A stretch of DNA of 36,846 nucleotides from IMG/VR virus record IMGVR_UViG_3300045988_045270; one strand, 5' to 3'. Both the position numbers and the translations under genes were made by a program. Below are positions 1 through 36,846 of this stretch, one piece after another. The notes beneath the pieces are model-generated. The model was not told where the DNA came from. It searched no databases and worked only from the letters and a program-made list of their open reading frames with translations. Position 1 is the stretch's first letter, and each line of letters opens with the position of its first letter. The DNA is from a virus.

Positions 1-84
1 ATTGTGGCTGAATCCGGGATTGATCCTGATAAAGAAATCACAGTTATGGCAGAAACTGGAAAAATCATTATTGAACAAAAAAAA
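1..84. repeat. Terminal direct repeat, identical to 36763-36846 except for the poly-A run (8 A here, 9 A at the 3' copy); consistent with a circular contig overlap
   Basis: Read directly: 84-nt identity between the window start and end. The run after 'ttgaac' is 8 A here (positions 77-84) and 9 A at 36837-36845. Confidence 0.9.
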
Positions 85-87
85 TAA
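1..87 (+). CDS. 3' end of the AbrB/MazE-like small DNA-binding protein gene (same gene as 36678..36846), partial at the window start; TAA at 85-87
   Basis: In frame with the ORF that starts at 36678, which encodes ...KIVAESGIDPDKEITVMAETGKIIIEQKK*. Confidence 0.5.
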   Translation: MVAESGIDPDKEITVMAETGKIIIEQKK

Positions 88-98
88 AGGCAAAAAAT

Positions 99-238
99 AT
101 GAAAGAAAAAACACAGAAACTCTTTGACGGAGCTTGCCCAGAATGCATTATCCTACTGACTTTTGAAGCTGATATGTACAAAGGCATGGAACTCGGCAGA
201 AAGTATACACTTGAAGAACTTGGACTATTGAAATTATG
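99..238 (+). CDS. Hypothetical 46-aa protein with a single CPEC motif
   Basis: ATG at 99 preceded by a purine-rich stretch, TGA at 236-238. Translation: MKEKTQKLFDGACPECIILLTFEADMYKGMELGRKYTLEELGLLKL. Confidence 0.3.
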
Positions 239-241
239 ATT

Positions 242-269
242 GAAAAAAGGGCATAAAAACCCTTTTTTC
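242..269. terminator. Hairpin AAAAAGGG-cataaaaa-CCCTTTTT, a putative bidirectional intrinsic terminator
   Basis: 8-bp stem with A/T-rich flanks, read directly from the sequence. Confidence 0.4.
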
Positions 270-340
270 TGGTAATAATTAGAGTATAATTACAGTAGAG
301 AAAGAGGGCAAAAAAATGTTGGAAAAGGAGGGCAAAAAAA

Positions 341-544
341 ATGGTATTTTCTAATAAAACATATGACATTCTAAAGTGGGTTGCACTTGTAGGAACAAAC
401 GCATTTTCAGCATTAATTATCACGCTCGGCAAAATCTGGGGATGGAGCTATGCAGTACCGATTGCAGGAACTATTTCGGCGATCGGAACGTGCATTGGTG
501 CGTGTTTACAATTAAGCTCAGCAAACTATAAAAGGGGTGAATAA
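341..544 (+). CDS. Putative class II holin with two transmembrane segments
   Basis: 67 aa with two hydrophobic helices (LKWVALVGTNAFSALIITLGKIW and AVPIAGTISAIGTCIGACL) and a charged C-terminus, immediately upstream of the endolysin. Confidence 0.55.
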   Translation: MVFSNKTYDILKWVALVGTNAFSALIITLGKIWGWSYAVPIAGTISAIGTCIGACLQLSSANYKRGE

Positions 545-892
545 ATGACTCCTGAAACAAGCGTAAGCATCGCATTACTTATTTCTTTGACATCGCTTGC
601 ATGTACGTTGATCAACACTTTTGCAGGTGGCAAAAAACGTCTGGAAGAACAGGCAGAGCGAGAAAAGAATAGGCAGATGGATATCGAAAAAAATTTTGTA
701 AAGATAAACTTAAAACTTGACGATTTTTGTGACACCACAAAAAAGATGATGGCAGAGAACAGTGAAAAGGCTGAGCAGTTGAAAAATGTATCAGAGCAAA
801 TCGTACTTGTTAAGGAACGCGTAAATACGTTGTTTAAGTACAAAGATGATCACGAAGCAAGAATCAAAGAGCTTGAAGACAAGATAAAATAA
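545..892 (+). CDS. BhlA/UviB/XhlA-like holin-associated membrane protein: N-terminal transmembrane segment plus coiled coil
   Basis: N-terminal hydrophobic segment ([19 protein letters not shown]) followed by a long charged coiled coil. It sits between the holin and the endolysin. Confidence 0.5.
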
Positions 893-905
893 GGAGGGAT
901 TAAAA

Positions 906-1940
906 ATGTACGGTATTGATATTTCAAAACACAACGGCAATATTAATTTAGAGCCATATAAAGGACAGTTTGTAATTATTAGAGTTGGATACGGCCATTT
1001 CCATTTAGACGAAAAATTTGAAAGAAACGTGAATGAGTGCAAAAGGCTAGGCATTCCGTTTGGGGTTTATCATTATTCATATGCACTGAATGAAAAGGAA
1101 GCAGAGGAAGAAGCCAAAGGAGTGCTTAACGCAATTGCAAAATATAAGAACGATATCAAGGTTGGCGTATGGTTCGATATGGAAGATGCAGATGGATACA
1201 AAAAGAAACACGGCTTTAAGTTCTCAAATGGAACTATTGCACCTATTTGTTATAAGTTCTGTAAGATTATTGAGGACGCAGGATATTATGCAGGCATTTA
1301 CACATCTAGTTCATGGCTTCAGTATGTAAATGGATTAAATGACAGATTCGACAAATGGGTTGCCAATTGGGGCAAGAATGATGGAGCACAGCACACAAAC
1401 ACTTCTCAATATGGCACATTACAACAGTACACTTCTAAACCGTTAGACAAGAACGTAATGTATGCAGACCTTTCAAGATATTCAAGACGTAACACAACAC
1501 AGCCTCAGTCAAAACCAATTGATCAGATTGCTAATGAAGTAATTGCAGGGCAATGGGGTGATGGAGCTGACAGAAAGAAACGCTTAACCGATGCAGGATA
1601 TGACTACAATGCTGTTCAGAATGCAGTGAATGCAAAGCTGGCAAAGAAATCTAATGAAGAGATTGCACAGGAAGTCATTGCAGGAAAGTGGGGCAATGGT
1701 AATGATCGCAAACAGCGCTTAACAAGTGCTGGATATAACTACACTGAAATACAAGAAATTGTTAATAAATTGACGAGTGCTAATAAAGCAAGCAAAGCAG
1801 TATATTACACTGTTAAGAGTGGCGATACATTAAGTGGCATTGCTTCTAAATACGGAACGACATATCAGCGTTTAGCACAGATGAACGGTATTGCTAATCC
1901 AAACAAGATATATACTGGACAGCGTTTAAGAGTGAAGTAA
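906..1940 (+). CDS. Endolysin: GH25 muramidase domain, two CW_7 cell-wall-binding repeats, and a C-terminal LysM
   Basis: N-terminus [10 protein letters not shown]...VIIRVGYG...DMED is GH25-like. There is a tandem repeat [30 protein letters not shown] / [30 protein letters not shown] (CW_7-like). The C-terminus [30 protein letters not shown]...RLRV is LysM-like. Confidence 0.9.
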
Positions 1941-2320
1941 TGGCACAAGGCTATTATTCATGTAGCAGGTGTGGGAAGATACATCCGAAAGGATATGTAT
2001 GCCATGTAGAGAAGAAGCACTACAAGTACAGTTACAAAGAGTCAAGGCTGAGAAGCAAGAGCGTATGGACAGAGAAGAGCAAACAGATTAGAGAAGATGC
2101 AAACTATCTATGTGAAGTGTGCAAAGACAAAGGCATATATAACTATCGTAATGTTGAAGTACATCACATAGAGAAGTTGAAGGATAAGCCAGAGTTATGG
2201 TTGGAAGATGATAACCTTATATGCTTATGTAAAGACTGTCACAGGTTAGCTGATGCAGGAATGATTGACAAAGAGTATTTGAAGAAGTTAGCTAGGCAGA
2301 GAATAGACAGGCTGAAATAA
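1940..2320 (+). CDS. HNH endonuclease (packaging-associated)
   Basis: CxxC...EVHHIEKL...LCKDCH motif. The gene lies between the lysis and packaging genes, as in cos-type phages. Confidence 0.85.
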   Translation: MAQGYYSCSRCGKIHPKGYVCHVEKKHYKYSYKESRLRSKSVWTEKSKQIREDANYLCEVCKDKGIYNYRNVEVHHIEKLKDKPELWLEDDNLICLCKDCHRLADAGMIDKEYLKKLARQRIDRLK

Positions 2321-2543
2321 TCCCCCCCATGGTAACGGGCATTTTCTGGTGAGACAGTGAGATGAAACGCCCAAAGGAATGAACACAAAATTAAAAAAAT
2401 CTTATGGTTTTTTGGAAAAACGGCAAATATCACGCTATAATGTGAATATAGCCGTTTTTATGTTTCAAAAAGAAGCAAAAAAGCAAAAAAATGTTCCACG
2501 TGGAACATGAGCGGGCTATATGAATGAAAGGAAGAAAACAAAA
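2321..2543. promoter_or_regulatory. Non-coding region with a C7 run (2322-2328) and a perfect 18-bp palindrome ATGTTCCACGTGGAACAT (2491-2508); candidate cos or terminase-recognition region
   Basis: The palindrome and the unusual C-run in an AT-rich genome are read directly. The position between HNH and the packaging genes is typical for cos. Confidence 0.35.
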
Positions 2544-3098
2544 ATGGAAAACAAAAAAATGAACATTGTTTACAAGAAAGTTAAGGACTTAATTCCGTAT
2601 GAGAACAATCCGAGACATAATGATGAAGCTGTTGACTATGTAGCAAAGAGCATTGAATAGTTTGGCTTCAAAGTTCCGTGTGTTGTGAGTGGTGACGGCG
2701 TATTGATCACGGGTCATACAAGACTTAAAGCATTTAAGAAGTTAGGTATCGAAGAAGTTCCGTGCATTGTGGCTGATGATCTTACTGAAGATCAGATTAA
2801 GGCATTCAGGATTGCAGATAACAAAGTATCCGAATACAGCACATGGGACAACACAAAACTTGCTGAAGAACTGAGCGACATCATGATGGATATGACACAG
2901 TTCGGTGATGATCTTTTCAAGGATGATGATACGATGAACGTTGAGCTTCCCGAAGAAGAAAATCCTTACAGCCAGAAGAAACACATCCCACAGTATGAAC
3001 CGACAGGTGACTTTGTCGATATTATGGAACTTATTGATGATGAAAAGACAAACGAGTTGATAAAAGAAATCAAAGAGTCAAACGTCACTGAAGATTAA
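2544..3098 (+). pseudogene. ParB-like nuclease-domain gene interrupted by an in-frame TAG (2658-2660); the reading frame stays open for a further 75 codons beyond its TAA (3096-3098), to 3323
   Basis: Translation MENKKMNIVYKKVKDLIPYENNPRHNDEAVDYVAKSIE*FGFKVPCVVSGDGVLITGHTRLKAFKKLGIEEVPCIVADDL carries the ParB N-terminal domain motifs (NPR, SI..G...P, GHTRL). The TAG falls inside the conserved block. Confidence 0.6.
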
Positions 3099-3312
3099 AA
3101 GAATTTTCTCATCAAAGGGGCTTACAGACATCTTAAATTCAATTATTCAAAGATTGCTGACTATTATTCCAATGCATCTGAAGAAATGCAGATTCTCATG
3201 GAGAAATCAGCGCTTGTCATTATTGACATTGATGATGCAATTGCAAACGGATATGTGAAACTTACAAAGGCTGTCGAGGACTTGATTGCTGAAGGTGGGG
3301 GCGGTGAAGACA

Positions 3313-4173
3313 ATGATGAATAAAAACTTTGCTGTATTTATTCTTTCACATGGACGTGCGAACAATATCAAGACAGTTAATATGTTGAAACGTTTTCATT
3401 ATACAGGTGATTGGTATGTTGTTATAGACAATGAGGATGATCAAGAAGAACTGTACAGAAATGAGTTTGGAAATCACATCATTCAATTTGATAAGCGAGA
3501 CTATGTAAGCAAAATCGACCTTGGCGACATGGACACAGACAGAATGGTTGGCGTGTTTGCGAGAAACTTTATTCAAGATGAAGCAGAACGTCTTGGCTAT
3601 GAATGCCACCTACAGCTTGATGATGATTTTTCTGAAATCGCAATAAGATATGCAGATGATGATAAATTACAAAGCATGATGGTTACTGACCTTGATGCTG
3701 TATTCGATGCGTGCCTTGATTTATTTTTATCAACGCCGTTGACTGCTTTATCATTTGCATTATCAAGTGATTACATTGGCGGAGTTGCTAGTGATAGGTT
3801 CCAAGCAGGAATGTTCAGGAAAACAATGGGATCGTTTTTCTTAAAAGCAAAAGACAAATTTCAATTTGTCATGCGTATGAACGATGATATTACATCATGC
3901 ATTTTGCACGGATCACGAGGAAAGTTGTTCTATACCATTTCGAGCTTGCAGGTGATTACTCCTGCGACTCAGCATAATACTGGTGGAATGACTGACATCT
4001 ATCAAAAGAATGGTACATATCGAAAATCGTTTTACAGTGTCTTGTGTTGTCCTTCATTTGTGAAGGTTTCAGCGATGGGAATTACTGACTTCAGGATTCA
4101 TCACACTATCAGTTGGAATAATGCCGTGCCAAAGCTTCTATCTGAAAGGTGGTGCAAGCATGAAAGACATTGA
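3313..4173 (+). CDS. GT-A fold (GT2-like) nucleotide-sugar glycosyltransferase
   Basis: N-terminal beta-strand FAVFILSHGRA, VVIDNEDD near residue 40, and the DXD motif LQLDDDF near residue 100. Strong RBS AGGTGGGGGCGGTGAAG precedes the ATG at 3313. Confidence 0.5.
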   Translation: MMNKNFAVFILSHGRANNIKTVNMLKRFHYTGDWYVVIDNEDDQEELYRNEFGNHIIQFDKRDYVSKIDLGDMDTDRMVGVFARNFIQDEAERLGYECHLQLDDDFSEIAIRYADDDKLQSMMVTDLDAVFDACLDLFLSTPLTALSFALSSDYIGGVASDRFQAGMFRKTMGSFFLKAKDKFQFVMRMNDDITSCILHGSRGKLFYTISSLQVITPATQHNTGGMTDIYQKNGTYRKSFYSVLCCPSFVKVSAMGITDFRIHHTISWNNAVPKLLSERWCKHERH

Positions 4174-5260
4174 TTATCTTATTATAGGTGCAGGGCTGAG
4201 CGGTTCAGTGATTGCGAGGGAAATGACGGACAAGGGCTATAAATGCGTTATTCTGGAAGATCGCACCGAGGTTGGTGGAAATATAAGGGACAAGGAAATC
4301 AGCGGAATAAACGTGCATCTATACGGCCCTCATATATTTAGAACTAATGACATCGAAATATGGGCTTATGTTAACCGTTTCGCTAGTTTTAACAATTTTA
4401 TCAATGAACCTATTGCAAATTACAAAGGCGAAATATATAACCTTCCGTTTAACATGAACACATTCTCTAAACTGTGGAGAGTTACAACACCAGAAGAAGC
4501 AAAGAGAAAGATTGAGGAGCAGAGAATACCGTGTGAAGATCCGAAAAATCTCGAAGAATATGTTCTAAATCTTGTAGGCACGGATATTTATGATAAATTG
4601 ATAAAAGGATACACAGAAAAGCAGTGGGGCAAGCCATGCAAGGAACTTGATAAAAGTATTATCAGGCGTATTCCGTTGCGATTCACGTACAACAATAATT
4701 ATTTCAATGCAAAGTACCAAGGCATTCCCGTTGATGGTTATTCTAAGGCAGTAGAAAGACTCCTAGAAGGCGTTGAAGTGGTGACAGGGTATAAATGTTC
4801 ATGCTCAAGTAAAGAGTGGCTAGAAAGGGCAAAAAACGTGGTTCTGACAGGTGCTATTGACGAGTGGTACGGTTATTGCTTTGGAACGTTAGAATATCGT
4901 AGCCTGAAATTTGAAACAGAGGAATTGAAGGAAGAAAATCATCAAGGCAATGCTGTCGTGAATTATACCGATGCTAGAGTGCCGTATACCAGAGTTATTG
5001 AACACAAGCATTTCACAGGGGTGAATACATCGACAACCATTATCACGAAGGAATATCCGCAGAAATGGAATATCGGGAAAGAGCGGTACTATCCGATTGA
5101 AGATGAAAAGAACAAAGCACTGTATCAGAAATACAAAGAACTTGCAGACCGTGATGGATTGATCACAGTTGGAAGGCTTGCAGAGTACAAATATTATGAT
5201 ATGGAAGATACAATCAAAAGTGCATTAAAGGCGGTGAGAGAATTATGCGAAAAACAGTAA
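4160..5260 (+). CDS. glf: UDP-galactopyranose mutase (Glf-like flavoenzyme)
   Basis: FAD-binding DYLIIGAGLSGSVIA...GGNIRD motif, and HLYGPHIFRTND...VW.YVN.F..FN.F.N...A.YKGEIYNLPFNMNTF matches the UGM family along its whole length. RBS GAAAGGTGGTG. Confidence 0.85.
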   Translation: MKDIDYLIIGAGLSGSVIAREMTDKGYKCVILEDRTEVGGNIRDKEISGINVHLYGPHIFRTNDIEIWAYVNRFASFNNFINEPIANYKGEIYNLPFNMNTFSKLWRVTTPEEAKRKIEEQRIPCEDPKNLEEYVLNLVGTDIYDKLIKGYTEKQWGKPCKELDKSIIRRIPLRFTYNNNYFNAKYQGIPVDGYSKAVERLLEGVEVVTGYKCSCSSKEWLERAKNVVLTGAIDEWYGYCFGTLEYRSLKFETEELKEENHQGNAVVNYTDARVPYTRVIEHKHFTGVNTSTTIITKEYPQKWNIGKERYYPIEDEKNKALYQKYKELADRDGLITVGRLAEYKYYDMEDTIKSALKAVRELCEKQ

Positions 5261-5619
5261 ATGAACAGGCTGAAGAAATATTACAGAAAGCAGAAACATT
5301 CGGAGTTGATAAGAATTTCTTTTTTATCACGACATTCAGGCGATACATGGTACAGTTGAAAATATTAAACGAGCTTGAATCGTCGATAAAAAATGACGGC
5401 GTGTTGGTTACGAAAGAATATGTAAAAGGAAGAAAAAACGTATATTCACATCCAGCCATTCAGGATTATAACCGAACAACTGACAGTGCAAATAAGACAG
5501 TCAGCACGTTAATGAAGATCATTTCGAGATTTTCCAGTGATGATAATTCTGAAAATGATACTGACCCATTGCTTCAGCTGATAAATGGCGGTGACGATGA
5601 TGGCAGTGACGAGCAGTAA
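5245..5619 (+). CDS. terS: Terminase small subunit (P27 family)
   Basis: About 120 aa with ...KEYVKGRKNVYSHPA... and an acidic C-terminus, immediately upstream of TerL. Typical partner of an HNH endonuclease. Confidence 0.65.
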   Translation: MRKTVNEQAEEILQKAETFGVDKNFFFITTFRRYMVQLKILNELESSIKNDGVLVTKEYVKGRKNVYSHPAIQDYNRTTDSANKTVSTLMKIISRFSSDDNSENDTDPLLQLINGGDDDGSDEQ

Positions 5620-5681
5620 GGCTTATGAATATTGCAAAAACTCTGTCAGAAAGAAAACCACACCGAGATACGTCAAAAAGG

Positions 5682-5689
5682 TGTATAAT
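5682..5689 (+). promoter_or_regulatory. Extended -10 promoter TGtATAAT in front of the GIY-YIG gene
   Basis: TGTATAAT at 5682-5689, about 27 nt upstream of ATG 5717. Read directly. Confidence 0.4.
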
Positions 5690-5716
5690 ATACAGTAGAA
5701 AAGAGGTATCAACAAG

Positions 5717-6328
5717 ATGGGTACATATACTGTATATAAGCATACATCACCAAATGGAAAGGTATATATCGGAATCACAAAGCTAAGTGTTGAAAGACGG
5801 TGGCAAGAAGGAAAAAATTACAAGACAAGCAGTCATTTTAATAATGCCATAAAAAAATACGGATGGGACAACATTAAACATGAAATCCTATTTACAGGGC
5901 TTTCAAGAAGCGAAGCAGAAGCAAAAGAAATAGAACTAATTGCCAAATATGACAGCACGAATCAGCGTAATGGTTACAACATAGAAAAAGGCGGAAATAC
6001 TCCTGAAATGTCAGAAGAAACACGTCAAAAGATGAGCAAGGCACACAAAGGCAGAAAGTACAAAAAGCGTAGAAACCACACAGAAGAAGAAAAGCTAGCA
6101 ATTAGCAAAAAATTAAAAGGAAGGGCATCTCCAATGAAGGGAAAACATTGGAGCATAGAACAACGCAGTGCAGTAGGAACGCCTATAATATGCACAACGA
6201 CAGGTGAAGAATTTTATAGCATTCGTGATGCATCACGTTCTACAGGATGCGACAGAGCAAATATATCTAGAGTATTAAAAGGAGAATACAAACAGACAAG
6301 GGGGCTTAAGTTTGAGTATAAAAAATAG
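5717..6328 (+). CDS. Free-standing GIY-YIG homing endonuclease with NUMOD3-like repeats
   Basis: GIY-YIG motif YTVYKHTSPNGKVYIGIT...R...E, repeated KxxKGRK/SPMKGKHWS DNA-binding modules, and an HTH-like C-terminus. The gene is inserted between terS and terL and its stop is a tandem TAG-TAA. Confidence 0.85.
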   Translation: MGTYTVYKHTSPNGKVYIGITKLSVERRWQEGKNYKTSSHFNNAIKKYGWDNIKHEILFTGLSRSEAEAKEIELIAKYDSTNQRNGYNIEKGGNTPEMSEETRQKMSKAHKGRKYKKRRNHTEEEKLAISKKLKGRASPMKGKHWSIEQRSAVGTPIICTTTGEEFYSIRDASRSTGCDRANISRVLKGEYKQTRGLKFEYKK

Positions 6329-22420: not shown

Positions 22421-24238
22421 ATGGCAACATCAGGAACATTCAAAACATCAGCATATGATGGCGCGTGCCTACAGTTCGACTGGATGTTGAAAAACCAAAA
22501 CATCGTCAACAATCAATCTGTTATCACATGGACATTAAAAGGTGCAGGAATCAAGTCTGGCTATTGGTACATGGCAGGGCCCTTCAAATGCGTTATAAAT
22601 GGGACTACAGTTTATCAGTCAAACACAAGAATTGAGTTATACACTGGGACGGTTGTGGCATCTGGAGAACTTGCAATCGGGCATGATACCAATGGTTCAA
22701 AGAGTTTTTCAGCGTATGCAGAATGTGCAATTTATACAACGGCTGTAAACTGCAAAGGTTCTGGAAGTTGGAGCCTTCCAGACATAGGCAGAGCATCAAA
22801 GCCAAGCCTGAACACATGGCCGAACAATTTGCCAAACTTTAATATCGGCGATACTATTGTGGTGTATATGAACAGAAAATCATCAGTATTTACGCATACA
22901 GTAGTGCTGAAGTTGGGTTCATACAGTTATACTATCGGCACTGGTGTAACGGATAATATTTCGTTGGATACGGACAATATCGCATCAAGTCTGTATGCAC
23001 AAATGCCAAACAGCAATAGCATGACTGGAGAAATCACTGTAACAACGTATAGTGGCAGTGTGATTATAGGTACGTCAAGCTGTACAATCATTGCACACGT
23101 TGTAAATTCTAACCCTGTATTTGATGTGGGTTATTCCGACACAAATTCGACAACAGTTGCAATCACTGGTGACAATCAGTATATTATCAGGAATAACTCG
23201 ATATTGAAAATCAGCATAAGCAATGCGCAGGCATTAAACAGTGCCACGTTGAAAACAATTACTGCCGTAGTAAATGGAAATGCTTATACAGGCAGTTTAA
23301 ACGGCACTACAGGCGTTGTAAACGTTGGCACGGTAAATATATCATCTGATGCAAAAGTGACCGTTAAATTGACGGATTCAAGGGGAAACGAGGGCATCAG
23401 TGAAATCACGGTGCTTGTGTACGACTGGATATTACCAAGTGCAATCATCAAGCTGAACCGAAAGAGCAATTATTATTCAGAAAGCATCTTGAATGTCAAT
23501 GCGAATTATTCATCAATAGGCGGAAAAAATGAGGTAACGATTAAGTACCGCACGAAGAAGGTTGCAAACAGCACATATAGCACTTACACGACAATTCAGG
23601 ATAACACCGATACGAATTTTACAGCTGACAACGAGTATGAATGGAACGTTCAGGTCAATGTTGCAGACAGACTAGGTAATACAACATACAATCTGATTCT
23701 TCCGAGGGGGATTCCGATTGCATATATAGATACTCAAAAAAACAGTTTCGGCGTAAATTGTTTCCCTAAAAACGATGAAAGTTTGGAGATAAATGGCAAA
23801 ACTGTTTTTGATATGGTGTACCCAGTAGGCAGTATTTATATGAGCGTGAACACCACAAGTCCAGCAACTATGTTCGGTGGTTCATGGGTGCAGATAAAGG
23901 ACAAATTTCTGCTAAGTGCAGGAGATATGTATAAAGCTGGAGCAACTGGTGGTGAAGCAACACACACGCTGACAAAAAGCGAAATCCCGAATTATACAAT
24001 TGGTAGTATTCCAGAAGCGGTTCCTGGCAATCACGATAACTGGCGTAATGGCGGGATCACAGGTGACAACTTAGGAAATGCCTCAAGTTCTAAAAAAGGT
24101 GTTGCAAACAACAACGAAGTGCTCATAATAACTTCTGGACCTCAGTGGAGTTATAGAATCAGCACAGACGGTGGAGGTCAACCGCACAACAACATGCCAC
24201 CCTACATAGCCGTCTACATTTGGCAAAGAACGGCGTAA
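22421..24238 (+). CDS. Receptor-binding / tail fibre protein with C-terminal phage tail collar domain
   Basis: C-terminus YPVGSIYMSVNTTSPATMFGGSWVQIKDKFLLSAG...HTLTKSEIPNYT...NMPPYIAVYIWQRTA is paralogous to the 19967 gene C-terminus. Upstream beta-rich Thr/Ser-rich domains. Confidence 0.6.
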   Translation: MATSGTFKTSAYDGACLQFDWMLKNQNIVNNQSVITWTLKGAGIKSGYWYMAGPFKCVINGTTVYQSNTRIELYTGTVVASGELAIGHDTNGSKSFSAYAECAIYTTAVNCKGSGSWSLPDIGRASKPSLNTWPNNLPNFNIGDTIVVYMNRKSSVFTHTVVLKLGSYSYTIGTGVTDNISLDTDNIASSLYAQMPNSNSMTGEITVTTYSGSVIIGTSSCTIIAHVVNSNPVFDVGYSDTNSTTVAITGDNQYIIRNNSILKISISNAQALNSATLKTITAVVNGNAYTGSLNGTTGVVNVGTVNISSDAKVTVKLTDSRGNEGISEITVLVYDWILPSAIIKLNRKSNYYSESILNVNANYSSIGGKNEVTIKYRTKKVANSTYSTYTTIQDNTDTNFTADNEYEWNVQVNVADRLGNTTYNLILPRGIPIAYIDTQKNSFGVNCFPKNDESLEINGKTVFDMVYPVGSIYMSVNTTSPATMFGGSWVQIKDKFLLSAGDMYKAGATGGEATHTLTKSEIPNYTIGSIPEAVPGNHDNWRNGGITGDNLGNASSSKKGVANNNEVLIITSGPQWSYRISTDGGGQPHNNMPPYIAVYIWQRTA

Positions 24239-24310
24239 AAAAGTTTTACAGATTGAATAAATCATGATATACTATTAGTGCAGTGTTTCATGTTCACTGC
24301 ATTCCTTTCT

Positions 24311-24345
24311 CAGCCTGTCGAAGCTTTCGGCGGGCTGTTTTTTTA
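24311..24345 (+). terminator. Rho-independent terminator of the late (tail fibre) operon
   Basis: CAGCC-tgtcgaagctttcggc-GGGCTG stem followed by TTTTTTT. Confidence 0.65.
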
Positions 24346-24398
24346 TTTGAAAAATTCTATACTAACTTGTCATAGCCTACAGGTTAGCATATCTTAGT

Positions 24399-24428
24399 AA
24401 AGAAAAAATCACCGATTGCATTCGGTGA
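24399..24428 (-). terminator. Rho-independent terminator for the minus-strand recombinase gene
   Basis: TCACCGA-ttgcat-TCGGTGA hairpin; on the minus strand it is followed by a T-run (plus-strand A-run at 24403-24408). Confidence 0.5.
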
Positions 24429-24524
24429 TTGATTGATGTATATTATAGATGTGGCTTACATTGGTCATAAATTCTCCTAGTAAAGGGCAGGCAGAAATGT
24501 CTGCTTTTTACTTGAAGAAAACTT

Positions 24525-25094
24525 CTATTCCATCAGGTGAAACATGGACAGAATCAAGAACATTTCGCCACAGGGTGCGCTTGTTCTCACGTGTGAGGTT
24601 ATCATATATTGAGCGCCAACCGCACCAGTGATAGGTTGACCTTGAGCAATCTTGTACTCAAATACGGCTTTGATACGTTCAGAGCCTTTTTTTAATTCAT
24701 GTTCTGCAAGATTGACTTTAAGGTTGAACATAAACAATCCGTTCGCAGTGGACGTGTTTATATCGTCCTCACAAATGGAAATCATGGCGACATTGTTCTG
24801 TTGAAGAAGTTCAAGCATTTTATTAGCTTCAAGGACATTACGTGACAGACGGTCAAGGCGTGTGAAAGCTATGGCATCAAGATTTTTCAGGTTAGACAGC
24901 ATGGATTGCAGTTGTGGGCGCTTCATGGTGCTTGCTGAGTAGCCTTCGTCTACATAAATATGTTGAAGGATATGATCATTGTCGTTGCACCATTGCGTTA
25001 TTTCTTCAGTCTGGGCCTGTATTGAGTATCCATATTTTTTCTGTTCATCTGTTGAAACACGAGCATATCCTGCCACTCGCAGTTTTTTTCTCAT
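24525..25094 (-). pseudogene. Large serine recombinase (integrase) reduced to its N-terminal catalytic domain; truncated at TAG
   Basis: MRKKLRVAGYARVSTDEQ...YVDEGYSAST.KRP.LQ...LDRLSRN...ERIKA matches the serine recombinase catalytic domain with the Ser nucleophile. The recombinase and zinc-ribbon domains are absent. RBS GGAGGG precedes ATG 25094. Confidence 0.6.
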
Positions 25095-25269
25095 AAAAAA
25101 TCCCTCCGATTGATTGAAAATAAAAAAAGCAGTCCATACTAGCCATTGAAAGGCGGTGAGCATATGGACGCTGAAAGTTTCTATTCTTTGCTGTTTAATC
25201 TTTATGCTGAACAGGAAGATCTCAAAATTGAGTATGAGTTAGACAACTCTTTTTTTTCGACAGATGGTT

Positions 25270-25611
25270 TCAATCAGAAACATTTTTACTGTCAAGGTAC
25301 AACTTCATTATCTTCAGATACAGTTCATCCTTCTCAGGTTCAGGAAGATCGTGAAACAGAGACTCGATGCGCAGTGTGAGGTCTGTCGCTTCGTCATAGC
25401 TTGACGTATCAATTCCAAAGTAAGATATATCAATTCCGTAAACCTCGCAAAAACGTTTCAAAGTTGAAAGAGTCAAGGAACGTTTTCCAGATTCAATATT
25501 TGATATGGCAGGTCTTGAAAGCCCGACAAGGTCAGCGAGTTCAGACTGTTTAAGATCACGGGAGATGCGTAGTTCTTTGAGTTTCCTTCCTATTGATTTA
25601 TTGTTGATCAT
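25270..25611 (-). CDS. CI-like repressor (XRE-family HTH)
   Basis: MINNKSIGRKLKELRISRDLKQSELADLVGLSRPAISNIESGKRSLTLSTL has an HTH_3 pattern. It is divergent from a cro-like gene. RBS GGTGGTG. Confidence 0.7.
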   Translation of the reverse strand: MINNKSIGRKLKELRISRDLKQSELADLVGLSRPAISNIESGKRSLTLSTLKRFCEVYGIDISYFGIDTSSYDEATDLTLRIESLFHDLPEPEKDELYLKIMKLYLDSKNVSD

Positions 25612-25757
25612 TATTTTACACCACCTAAAAAAGTTTATATTTCGATGATAACATAACGTTGCTATTTGAAACAATAAAAAATAATCGTCTTTTGATTAAA
25701 AGTAGTTGCAATTTGATTACAAGGGTTTATAATGTAATGCATGAAAGGGGGCACGAA
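25612..25757. promoter_or_regulatory. Divergent cI/cro intergenic switch. The rightward promoter has -35 TTGCAA (25706-25711) and -10 TATAAT (25728-25733), flanked by direct repeats TTTGATTA(A/C)AAG at 25691 and 25712
   Basis: Read directly from the sequence; 16-nt spacer. Confidence 0.5.
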
Positions 25758-25952
25758 ATGAAAAGAGCAGAATTGAAAGCATTCAGAATTTCAAAGGGTT
25801 TTACTCAGAAGGACGTTGCAGAAATGCTTGGAATATCAACGAGCCATTATGCTTGTATTGAGCAAGGAACGCATAATCCTTCTACAGAGCTTGTCAAAGT
25901 TTTTTGCAAAGTGTTTGGATATGAATATGCGAATTTGATTATTGGGAGCTGA
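25758..25952 (+). CDS. Cro-like XRE-family HTH regulator
   Basis: MKRAELKAFRISKGFTQKDVAEMLGISTSHYACIEQGTHNPS has an HTH_3 pattern; RBS AAAGGGGG. Confidence 0.6.
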   Translation: MKRAELKAFRISKGFTQKDVAEMLGISTSHYACIEQGTHNPSTELVKVFCKVFGYEYANLIIGS

Positions 25953-36677: not shown

Positions 36678-36846
36678 ATGGCAAAACTTGCGAAAATGAA
36701 GTACAAAACTATGGGTGGCGATGTAAAAATCAACACGTATAATGCGACAATATCAAAAAAGATTGTGGCTGAATCCGGGATTGATCCTGATAAAGAAATC
36801 ACAGTTATGGCAGAAACTGGAAAAATCATTATTGAACAAAAAAAAT
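36678..36846 (+). CDS. AbrB/MazE (SpoVT-AbrB swapped-hairpin)-like small DNA-binding protein, first gene of the late/lysis transcription unit; continues into the terminal repeat
   Basis: RBS GAGAGG. VKINTYNATISKKIVAESGIDPDKEITVMAETGKIII fits the AbrB-type beta-hairpin pattern. Confidence 0.45.
   Translation, partial: MAKLAKMKYKTMGGDVKINTYNATISKKIVAESGIDPDKEITVMAETGKIIIEQKK
36763..36846. repeat. Terminal direct repeat, copy of 1-84
   Basis: See the first feature. Confidence 0.9.

Follow-up and report, generated by a model that had tools for sequence, protein, structure and literature searches.

Large serine integrases, such as those of the Listeria phages A118 and U153, the Clostridioides phage phiCD27, and the Lactococcus phage TP901-1, share a common architecture, which consists of a Resolvase catalytic domain followed by a Recombinase domain, a zinc ribbon, and a coiled coil. 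In serine integrases, binding of the att half-sites falls to the recombinase and zinc-ribbon domains, and synapsis and directionality are under the control of the coiled coil. Deletion derivatives of the Streptococcus thermophilus phage phiSfi21 lack the lysogeny genes. The mycobacteriophage D29 is a natural lytic deletion derivative of an L5-like temperate phage, which has lost its repressor and kept its tyrosine integrase. Lytic P335 lactococcal phages have been described that contain no integrase gene (PMC3757294). The Roseburia intestinalis phage Shimadzu is temperate and carries a large serine integrase; its ultravirulent mutants arise in the gut, where the phage repeatedly turns lytic and is countered by CRISPR spacer acquisition (bioRxiv 10.1101/575076). 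The locus analysed here lies in a viral genome of 36,846 nucleotides (IMG/VR record IMGVR_UViG_3300045988_045270), and this whole stretch is referred to as the window. Its integrase gene (int), of the phage large serine type, is very likely a null allele, produced by a single recent and spontaneous loss of 748 bp across a blunt, illegitimate junction, which left a non-integrating phage.

The first 85 nt of the window (1..85) are repeated exactly at 36762-36846, as was found by script, and represent a circular-assembly overlap. This exact terminal overlap indicates a complete circular genome with 36,761 bp of unique sequence. The G+C content is 38%. The gene order begins with the lysis genes, an HNH endonuclease, a ParB-like nuclease, and a glycosyltransferase pair. 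These are followed by terS, a GIY-YIG homing endonuclease, terL, and the head and tail genes up to a tail protein at 22421-24238 (PHROG). The minus-strand pair int and cI comes next, and the order ends with cro, ERF, exonuclease, SSB, NinB, Holliday-junction resolvase, an O-like initiator, and a DnaC-like loader. The int gene lies between cI and the tail gene, which, together with the complete circle, indicates an excised or replicating form and not a decaying integrated prophage. The HNH endonuclease gene (1940-2320) is located after the endolysin gene; the GIY-YIG-type homing endonuclease gene (5717-6328) is located between the small and large terminase genes. Two overlapping genes at 3286-5260 separate the ParB-like nuclease gene from terS. 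One is a glycosyltransferase (phrog_842), and the other encodes 379 aa (phrog_9677), with an N-terminus that by eye is of the FAD-binding or UDP-galactopyranose-mutase type; this pair may be DNA- or surface-modification cargo. A megablast search of GenBank phages (INPHARED) with the int region and both genome halves gave no match, which indicates that there is no cultured close relative. The protein-level neighbours are distant: the portal shares 63% identity with Lactobacillus delbrueckii phages, and the endolysin about 42% with an Erysipelothrix phage.

The int open reading frame of the window runs on the minus strand from ATG (25094-25092) to TAG (24527-24525) and encodes 189 aa. Pfam analysis matched a single domain, Resolvase (PF00239), at residues 7-153 (E 2.6e-34), which is the N-terminal catalytic feature of the large serine recombinases. 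The catalytic motifs YARVSTDEQ (with the nucleophile Ser14), LDRLSRN, and the ERIKA helix are all kept, and the first two fall in invariant columns of the family alignment. Neither the Recombinase domain (PF07508) nor the zinc ribbon (PF13408) was found by Pfam in the window product; both are missing because they were deleted. Pfam also identified no HTH or other domain after residue 153, where small serine recombinases have their C-terminal HTH. A small serine recombinase (resolvase or invertase) was ruled out, since the tail comes from the 3' end of the integrase gene in the wrong frame. The parts of the gene are as follows.

24624..25094, minus strand: native 5' part of the serine integrase, codons 1-157, to ...QPITG (ORF reading, Pfam)
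24623..24624, no strand: deletion scar (BLAST breakpoints against at least 30 intact loci, and junction alignment to both parents)
24525..24623, minus strand: frameshifted tail, 32 non-native codons and the TAG at 24525-24527 (direct reading)
24508..24623, minus strand: out-of-frame int 3' remnant, with 2 bases of codon 407, codons 408-444, and the original TAA at 24508-24510 (matches intact L003 and L028)

An earlier note on this DNA had read a catalytic domain of about 165 aa, followed by about 25 residues and a TAG. The domain and the terminal TAG are present as described; the native part has 157 codons and the tail 32. The same note had also assigned an alternative-frame peptide to a recombinase C-terminus. 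This assignment holds for the last 37 residues, GWRSIYDNLTRENKRTLWRNVLDSVHVSPDGIEVFFK, which correspond to residues 408-444 of the intact 444-aa integrase. It does not hold for the preceding YHWC, which is the native part in the wrong frame.

In the initial protein search, all matches were short (105-312 aa); many were more than 90% identical, and their internal junctions differed. Many of these short homologues share the ...IEVFFK C-terminus with the remnant frame of the window. A full-length query was stitched from overlapping fragments and then scanned against IMG/VR. The scan gave 39 loci, most of which have an uninterrupted 444-aa gene with 93-96% identity to the window gene; at least 30 IMG/VR int loci are intact. 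A second protein search with the intact query identified the intact integrase cluster P0041 (444 aa), which has 1278 member sequences. BLAST comparison of window positions 24200-25700 with the intact loci showed two colinear blocks, which meet at 24624/24623 and are 748 bp apart in every intact locus. The left block, which holds the native 5' part, has 95.6% identity to L005. The right block, from the junction on, has 100% identity to L028 over 424 nt and 99.7% to L003 over 365 nt. The junction reads ...ATCACTGGT joined directly to GCGGTTGGCGC... in the window. Beyond it the left parent continues with AATGTTCC (codons NVPFGY), and on the right parent the bases ahead of the breakpoint are ...TTGAACA. 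Microhomology between the two is 0-1 nt, which makes the junction blunt. Codons 158 to 407 are lost, and the deletion is out of frame, since 748 = 3n+1. In the intact L005, the Recombinase domain (PF07508) occupies aa 179-255 and the zinc ribbon (PF13408) aa 267-324; the 748-bp deletion takes out both domains and the coiled-coil region.

The alignment to intact orthologues agrees with the claim of the earlier note that the recombinase and zinc-ribbon domains were removed out of frame. The internal deletion is real, with a size of 748 bp and not the suggested 0.9 kb or so. At 100% DNA identity to intact relatives, the remnant has not decayed any further, which indicates that the deletion event was recent. 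As judged from the DNA comparison, this identity is far above chance. The window gene has an intact orthologue of high identity, colinear flanks, and a frame that is broken at the breakpoint, as in a pseudogene formed by internal deletion. From its sequence, it is best filed as a pseudogene of the Firmicute phage large serine integrase family. A need for the deletion in fitting the capsid was ruled out, as the intact relatives span 35-39 kb.

The genes of the lysogeny switch adjoin the truncated gene.

25270..25611, minus strand: cI-type repressor, 113 aa (MINNK...), Pfam HTH_3 (E 3.3e-17), intact
25758..25952, plus strand: cro-type regulator, 64 aa (MKRAEL...), Pfam HTH_3 (E 4.6e-12), intact, divergent from cI

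The window cI has 98% identity over 113 aa to the cI of a relative with intact int, and was scored as intact in the census described below. A 64-aa gene is also called at the cro position in the relatives. The intact cI/cro switch proposed from the first reading was confirmed, with a full-length cI and a cro that contains HTH_3. Judged on these two intact genes, the window does not have the repressor-defective feature of a virulent phage; this feature was found in the relatives L133, L036, L034, L041, L038, L224, and L237. A 77-aa open reading frame (25146-25379, plus strand) lies antisense to the cI 3' end within the cI-int spacer. Pfam gave no match for it, and it is possibly spurious; a 71-aa gene is called at the same place in L002, L044, L045, and L277.

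Downstream of int, a candidate attachment site is located between two convergent terminators.

24311..24337, plus strand: terminator-like hairpin ending the tail-protein gene at 22421-24238 (terminator scan)
24355..24404, no strand: candidate attP, a 50-bp imperfect palindrome with 24-nt arms and a 2-nt centre (repeat finding and conservation)
24407..24430, minus strand: terminator-like hairpin downstream of int (terminator scan; conserved in relatives)

The 50-bp palindrome is still present in the window, as it is in those deletion variants that were checked. It was found to be conserved in 45, and later in about 70, relatives. Comparison of the window with L182-L256 showed that the outer arms are invariant, and that an 8-nt patch in the int-proximal inner arm varies. 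The variants of this patch among the relatives include GATATGCT, CATTATGT, CATGCACT, and CATGGTTT. In L009, L011, L013, L025, L031, and L037, an insertion of 330-510 bp is present between the palindrome and the tail-gene terminator. The conserved palindrome arm is also targeted by spacers in two independent host CRISPR arrays.

Integration junctions were searched in IMG/VR and the JGI metagenomes with one palindrome arm as the half-site, and only the undivided site and CRISPR spacers were returned. Three odd half-site matches were rejected as integration junctions: two are CRISPR arrays (L246 and L249), and one is a likely chance 19-mer (L239). Scans of the GTDB species representatives for the integrase, with a single sequence and with a family alignment, gave no relative above 35% identity, and hence no integrated copy, host, or attB. 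No attB, attL, or attR was found for any relative. As no attL or attR was found, the palindrome at 24355-24404 is only a candidate attP. In every contig read (about 100), int is in the phage configuration and adjoins phage genes at either end. Those that carry int (L001-L046, L127-L256, and L277) are all 20-40 kb in length and circular or excised, with intact or deleted int. No phage-host DNA joins were found in them, despite strong purifying selection on the integrase. Contig ends within or near int are explained by circular-permutation breaks. An attP inside the int 3' end, as in Shimadzu, was also rejected; the 458-aa forms are only upstream-start variants with the same C-terminus.

The truncated product would consist of the catalytic domain (residues 1-157) and 32 nonsense residues. 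The protein ends at native residue 157 and the att-binding domains are gone, so that it should bind neither attP nor attB. Because every DNA-binding domain is missing, we infer that the phage is unable to integrate or to excise. The deletion leaves the cI/cro switch, all the lytic functions, and the candidate attP untouched. The phage would still replicate and lyse, and perhaps set up repression. A repressed, unintegrated genome without a partition system would be diluted out at cell division, that is, abortive lysogeny would result. In practice, the phage would spread by lytic growth only, probably in Holdemanella.

The loss of int or cI is recurrent among the relatives. At least 16 distinct DNA-level deletion alleles confined to the cI-int module were identified, each with a different junction. 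They are found in the window, L001, L002, L031, L034, L036, L038 (two deletions), L039, L040, L041, L133, L224, L232, L237, L240/L128, and L243. Extra alleles are known only as proteins, including the cI-Int fusions P0024, P0030, P0084, and P0169. The relative L011 has a nonsense mutation. L024 and L028 have single-base frameshifts exactly at two A-runs of int, which lie at 25081-25087 and 25035-25040 in the window (codons 2-4 and 18-20); these frameshifts might be real slippage or homopolymer sequencing errors. Another relative, L165, contains neither cI nor int. It shares cro and ERF with the window (83-88% DNA identity, L165 positions 1-6000) and has its lysis cassette directly upstream of cro, unlike the window, where the lysis genes are at 545-1940. 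One relative (L039, L146, and L236) contains an insertion of about 1.2 kb in the cI-cro intergenic region, besides its int deletion.

In a census of 67 unique lysogeny regions, both int and cI were intact in 45. Only int was disrupted in 14, both genes were disrupted in 7, and only cI was disrupted in 1. Four regions that were found because they are truncated (the window, L001, L002, and L128) were excluded from the rates. Among the remaining 63 regions, deletions of at least 100 bp in int and/or cI were present in 12 (about 19%) and any disruption in 18 (about 29%), figures that come from pooled, differently collected data sets, in which some contigs occur in several collections and de-duplication was by exact sequence only. 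The deletion junctions across the alleles have 0-15 nt of imperfect homology, a pattern typical of illegitimate recombination. In the IMG/VR loci, which came from DNA searches and not from clusters of truncated proteins, the within-int deletions (L038, L039, and L040) are out of frame, as in the window. An excess of in-frame forms among the short protein hits was considered as selection for read-through, and was rejected as an ascertainment effect of protein clustering. For 47 unique intact int alleles, dN/dS is about 0.05 at a dS of about 0.48, and this ratio does not differ between the retained, deleted, and tail sections of int. These values indicate that the intact integrase is functional and strongly maintained in the lineage, and that the disrupted alleles are recent tips. 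The window is probably one of many independent, short-lived int/cI-loss derivatives of a temperate lineage with a conserved integrase.

The int-deleted genome might instead persist, either with Int supplied in trans by co-circulating relatives or as an unintegrated repressed episome (pseudolysogeny or a carrier state). The sample could also contain an intact variant that provides Int in trans. The window keeps cI, cro, and the conserved 50-bp palindrome, and int-only loss is the commonest class (14 of the 22 disrupted regions). Some deletion alleles also cluster with 9-37 member sequences (P0026 and P0084), which suggests some spread. However, no partition or plasmid-maintenance genes were found in the scanned ORFs, and the attP is only a candidate. 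The ratio of int-only to cI-only loss (14:1) is not significantly different from the ratio of about 4:1 that is expected from the gene sizes (binomial estimate, p of about 0.16). No ParA was identified among the 20 ORFs scanned against PHROGs, where the only related product was a 137-aa protein with a ParB-like nuclease domain, encoded near the packaging genes. The replication genes are of the lambda O-like and DnaC-like type. The plasmid-like derivative that the first reading had offered as one outcome is unsupported on this evidence, and a plasmid prophage (phage-plasmid) was rejected, with partition genes absent among the 20 ORFs scanned. Persistence by these routes is considered unlikely, and a non-integrating null allele remains the preferred reading.

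The half-palindrome search also returned two CRISPR arrays. The array in L246 (1-6032) adjoins cas9-cas1-cas2-csn2, which is a type II-A organization. The type II-A loci L246, L249, and L257-L276 have a 36-nt repeat, GTTCTGTTCTAGCAAAAATCCTTATGGTAACAAAAC, and 30-nt spacers. The Csn2 beside those arrays shares 95% identity with an annotated Holdemanella biformis protein. Of the 281 unique spacers, from 18 arrays, 35 match the phage group with no more than 3 mismatches, and 11 of these match the window itself. The spacer matches and the Csn2 identity indicate that the host is probably Holdemanella (Erysipelotrichaceae). Since these arrays hold many spacers against the phage group, the deletion might have been selected because it removed a protospacer within int from CRISPR-Cas9 attack. 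In the stretch of int that is missing from the window, one spacer (L263_sp8) matches at 29/30 positions, near nt 808 of the gene; another (L246_sp9) falls on the cI start. However, only 1 of the 35 spacers lies in int, where about 1.3 would be expected from the genome share of the gene, so that there is no enrichment in int among the 18 arrays sampled. Selection of this kind is improbable as the cause, and a spontaneous deletion is preferred.

An artefact of assembly or sequencing, or promotion of a minor variant to the consensus, was also considered, since the genome was assembled from short metagenomic reads. Four contigs on record encode exactly the same 189-aa product. One of them is an ENA scaffold (SAMEA2338658; 36,816 nt) and another is a Logan contig (ERR414273); these two come from separate assembly pipelines and apparently from one human gut sample. 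The recovery of the same allele by two pipelines argues against an artefact of one assembler. Moreover, the junction has no repeat long enough to fool a k-mer assembler, and dozens of other samples hold analogous deletions. An artefact is very improbable, and the deletion is regarded as a real allele.

A functional catalytic-domain-only serine recombinase or regulator, conserved by related phages, can be dismissed almost entirely: the gene keeps its catalytic motifs and start region, and many short homologues are on record, but these homologues differ in junction and length and derive from one 444-aa gene by deletion, the window tail is the true 3' end out of frame, no DNA-binding domain is left, and the allele occurs in four contigs only, two of which are apparently from the same sample, so that the differing junctions and the out-of-frame tail contradict it. 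The comparison proposed in the earlier note points the same way; the peptide is a recombinase C-terminus, and the catalytic-domain-only form is not conserved, each short homologue having its own junction.

Temperate phages are already known to give rise to derivatives that lack lysogeny genes, and the single window locus is ordinary. The recurrent independent losses and the host assignment are more interesting than the single locus. We infer that the temperate lineage continually sheds non-lysogenising derivatives, which bloom and do not last. As a tentative view, which we hold with slightly less than even confidence, there might be a source-sink dynamic in a common Holdemanella phage lineage of the human gut, in which the integrase is kept while about a fifth to a quarter of the assembled genomes have fresh, independent, non-persisting deletions in int and/or cI. 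The phage's own ERF-type annealing recombinase or CRISPR pressure might aid the gene loss. If this dynamic is real, the conversion of temperate phages to non-lysogenising ones by gene loss would be routine and measurable in the gut, and the window would capture it at a single moment. The window phage would be misclassified as temperate by tools that rely on an integrase domain match. In the literature, of which coverage was incomplete, no report was found on this phage lineage or on recurrent int deletions in gut metagenomes. The lineage offers a countable natural case of repeated lysogeny loss in an uncultured gut phage, amid strong purifying selection. With the alleles, the selection analysis, and the CRISPR-backed host, how often and why temperate gut phages turn lytic could now be tested in existing read archives.

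In comparison with the known systems, the intact orthologue has the same domain architecture as the large serine integrases of A118/U153, phiCD27, and TP901-1. Its gene also occupies the same position as in the A118/phiCD27/TP901-1 group, at the end of the lysogeny module and beside cI. The catalytic domain shares 39-40% identity with phiCD27 and A118, and the level of about 40% is confined to this domain; the best match by sequence among the solved structures is the catalytic domain of the TP901-1 integrase (3BVP). Unlike the Firmicute large serine integrases, the window copy contains none of the domains past residue 157. The mutants of Shimadzu differ from the window, as they have point mutations in the operator and cro and not int deletions. 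The Shimadzu attP lies inside int; when such an arrangement was looked for here, no alternative C-terminus was found. The window resembles the lytic P335 phages and the phiSfi21 derivatives, in which a temperate Firmicute siphophage gave rise to non-lysogenising forms by the loss of int and/or the repressor. Those cases come from industrial fermentations and from isolates; the window lineage shows repeated losses in uncultured human-gut metagenomes, and the window keeps cI. As in D29, the lifestyle would have been changed by a deletion in the lysogeny region. However, the window is the reverse of D29, with the integrase lost and the repressor kept.
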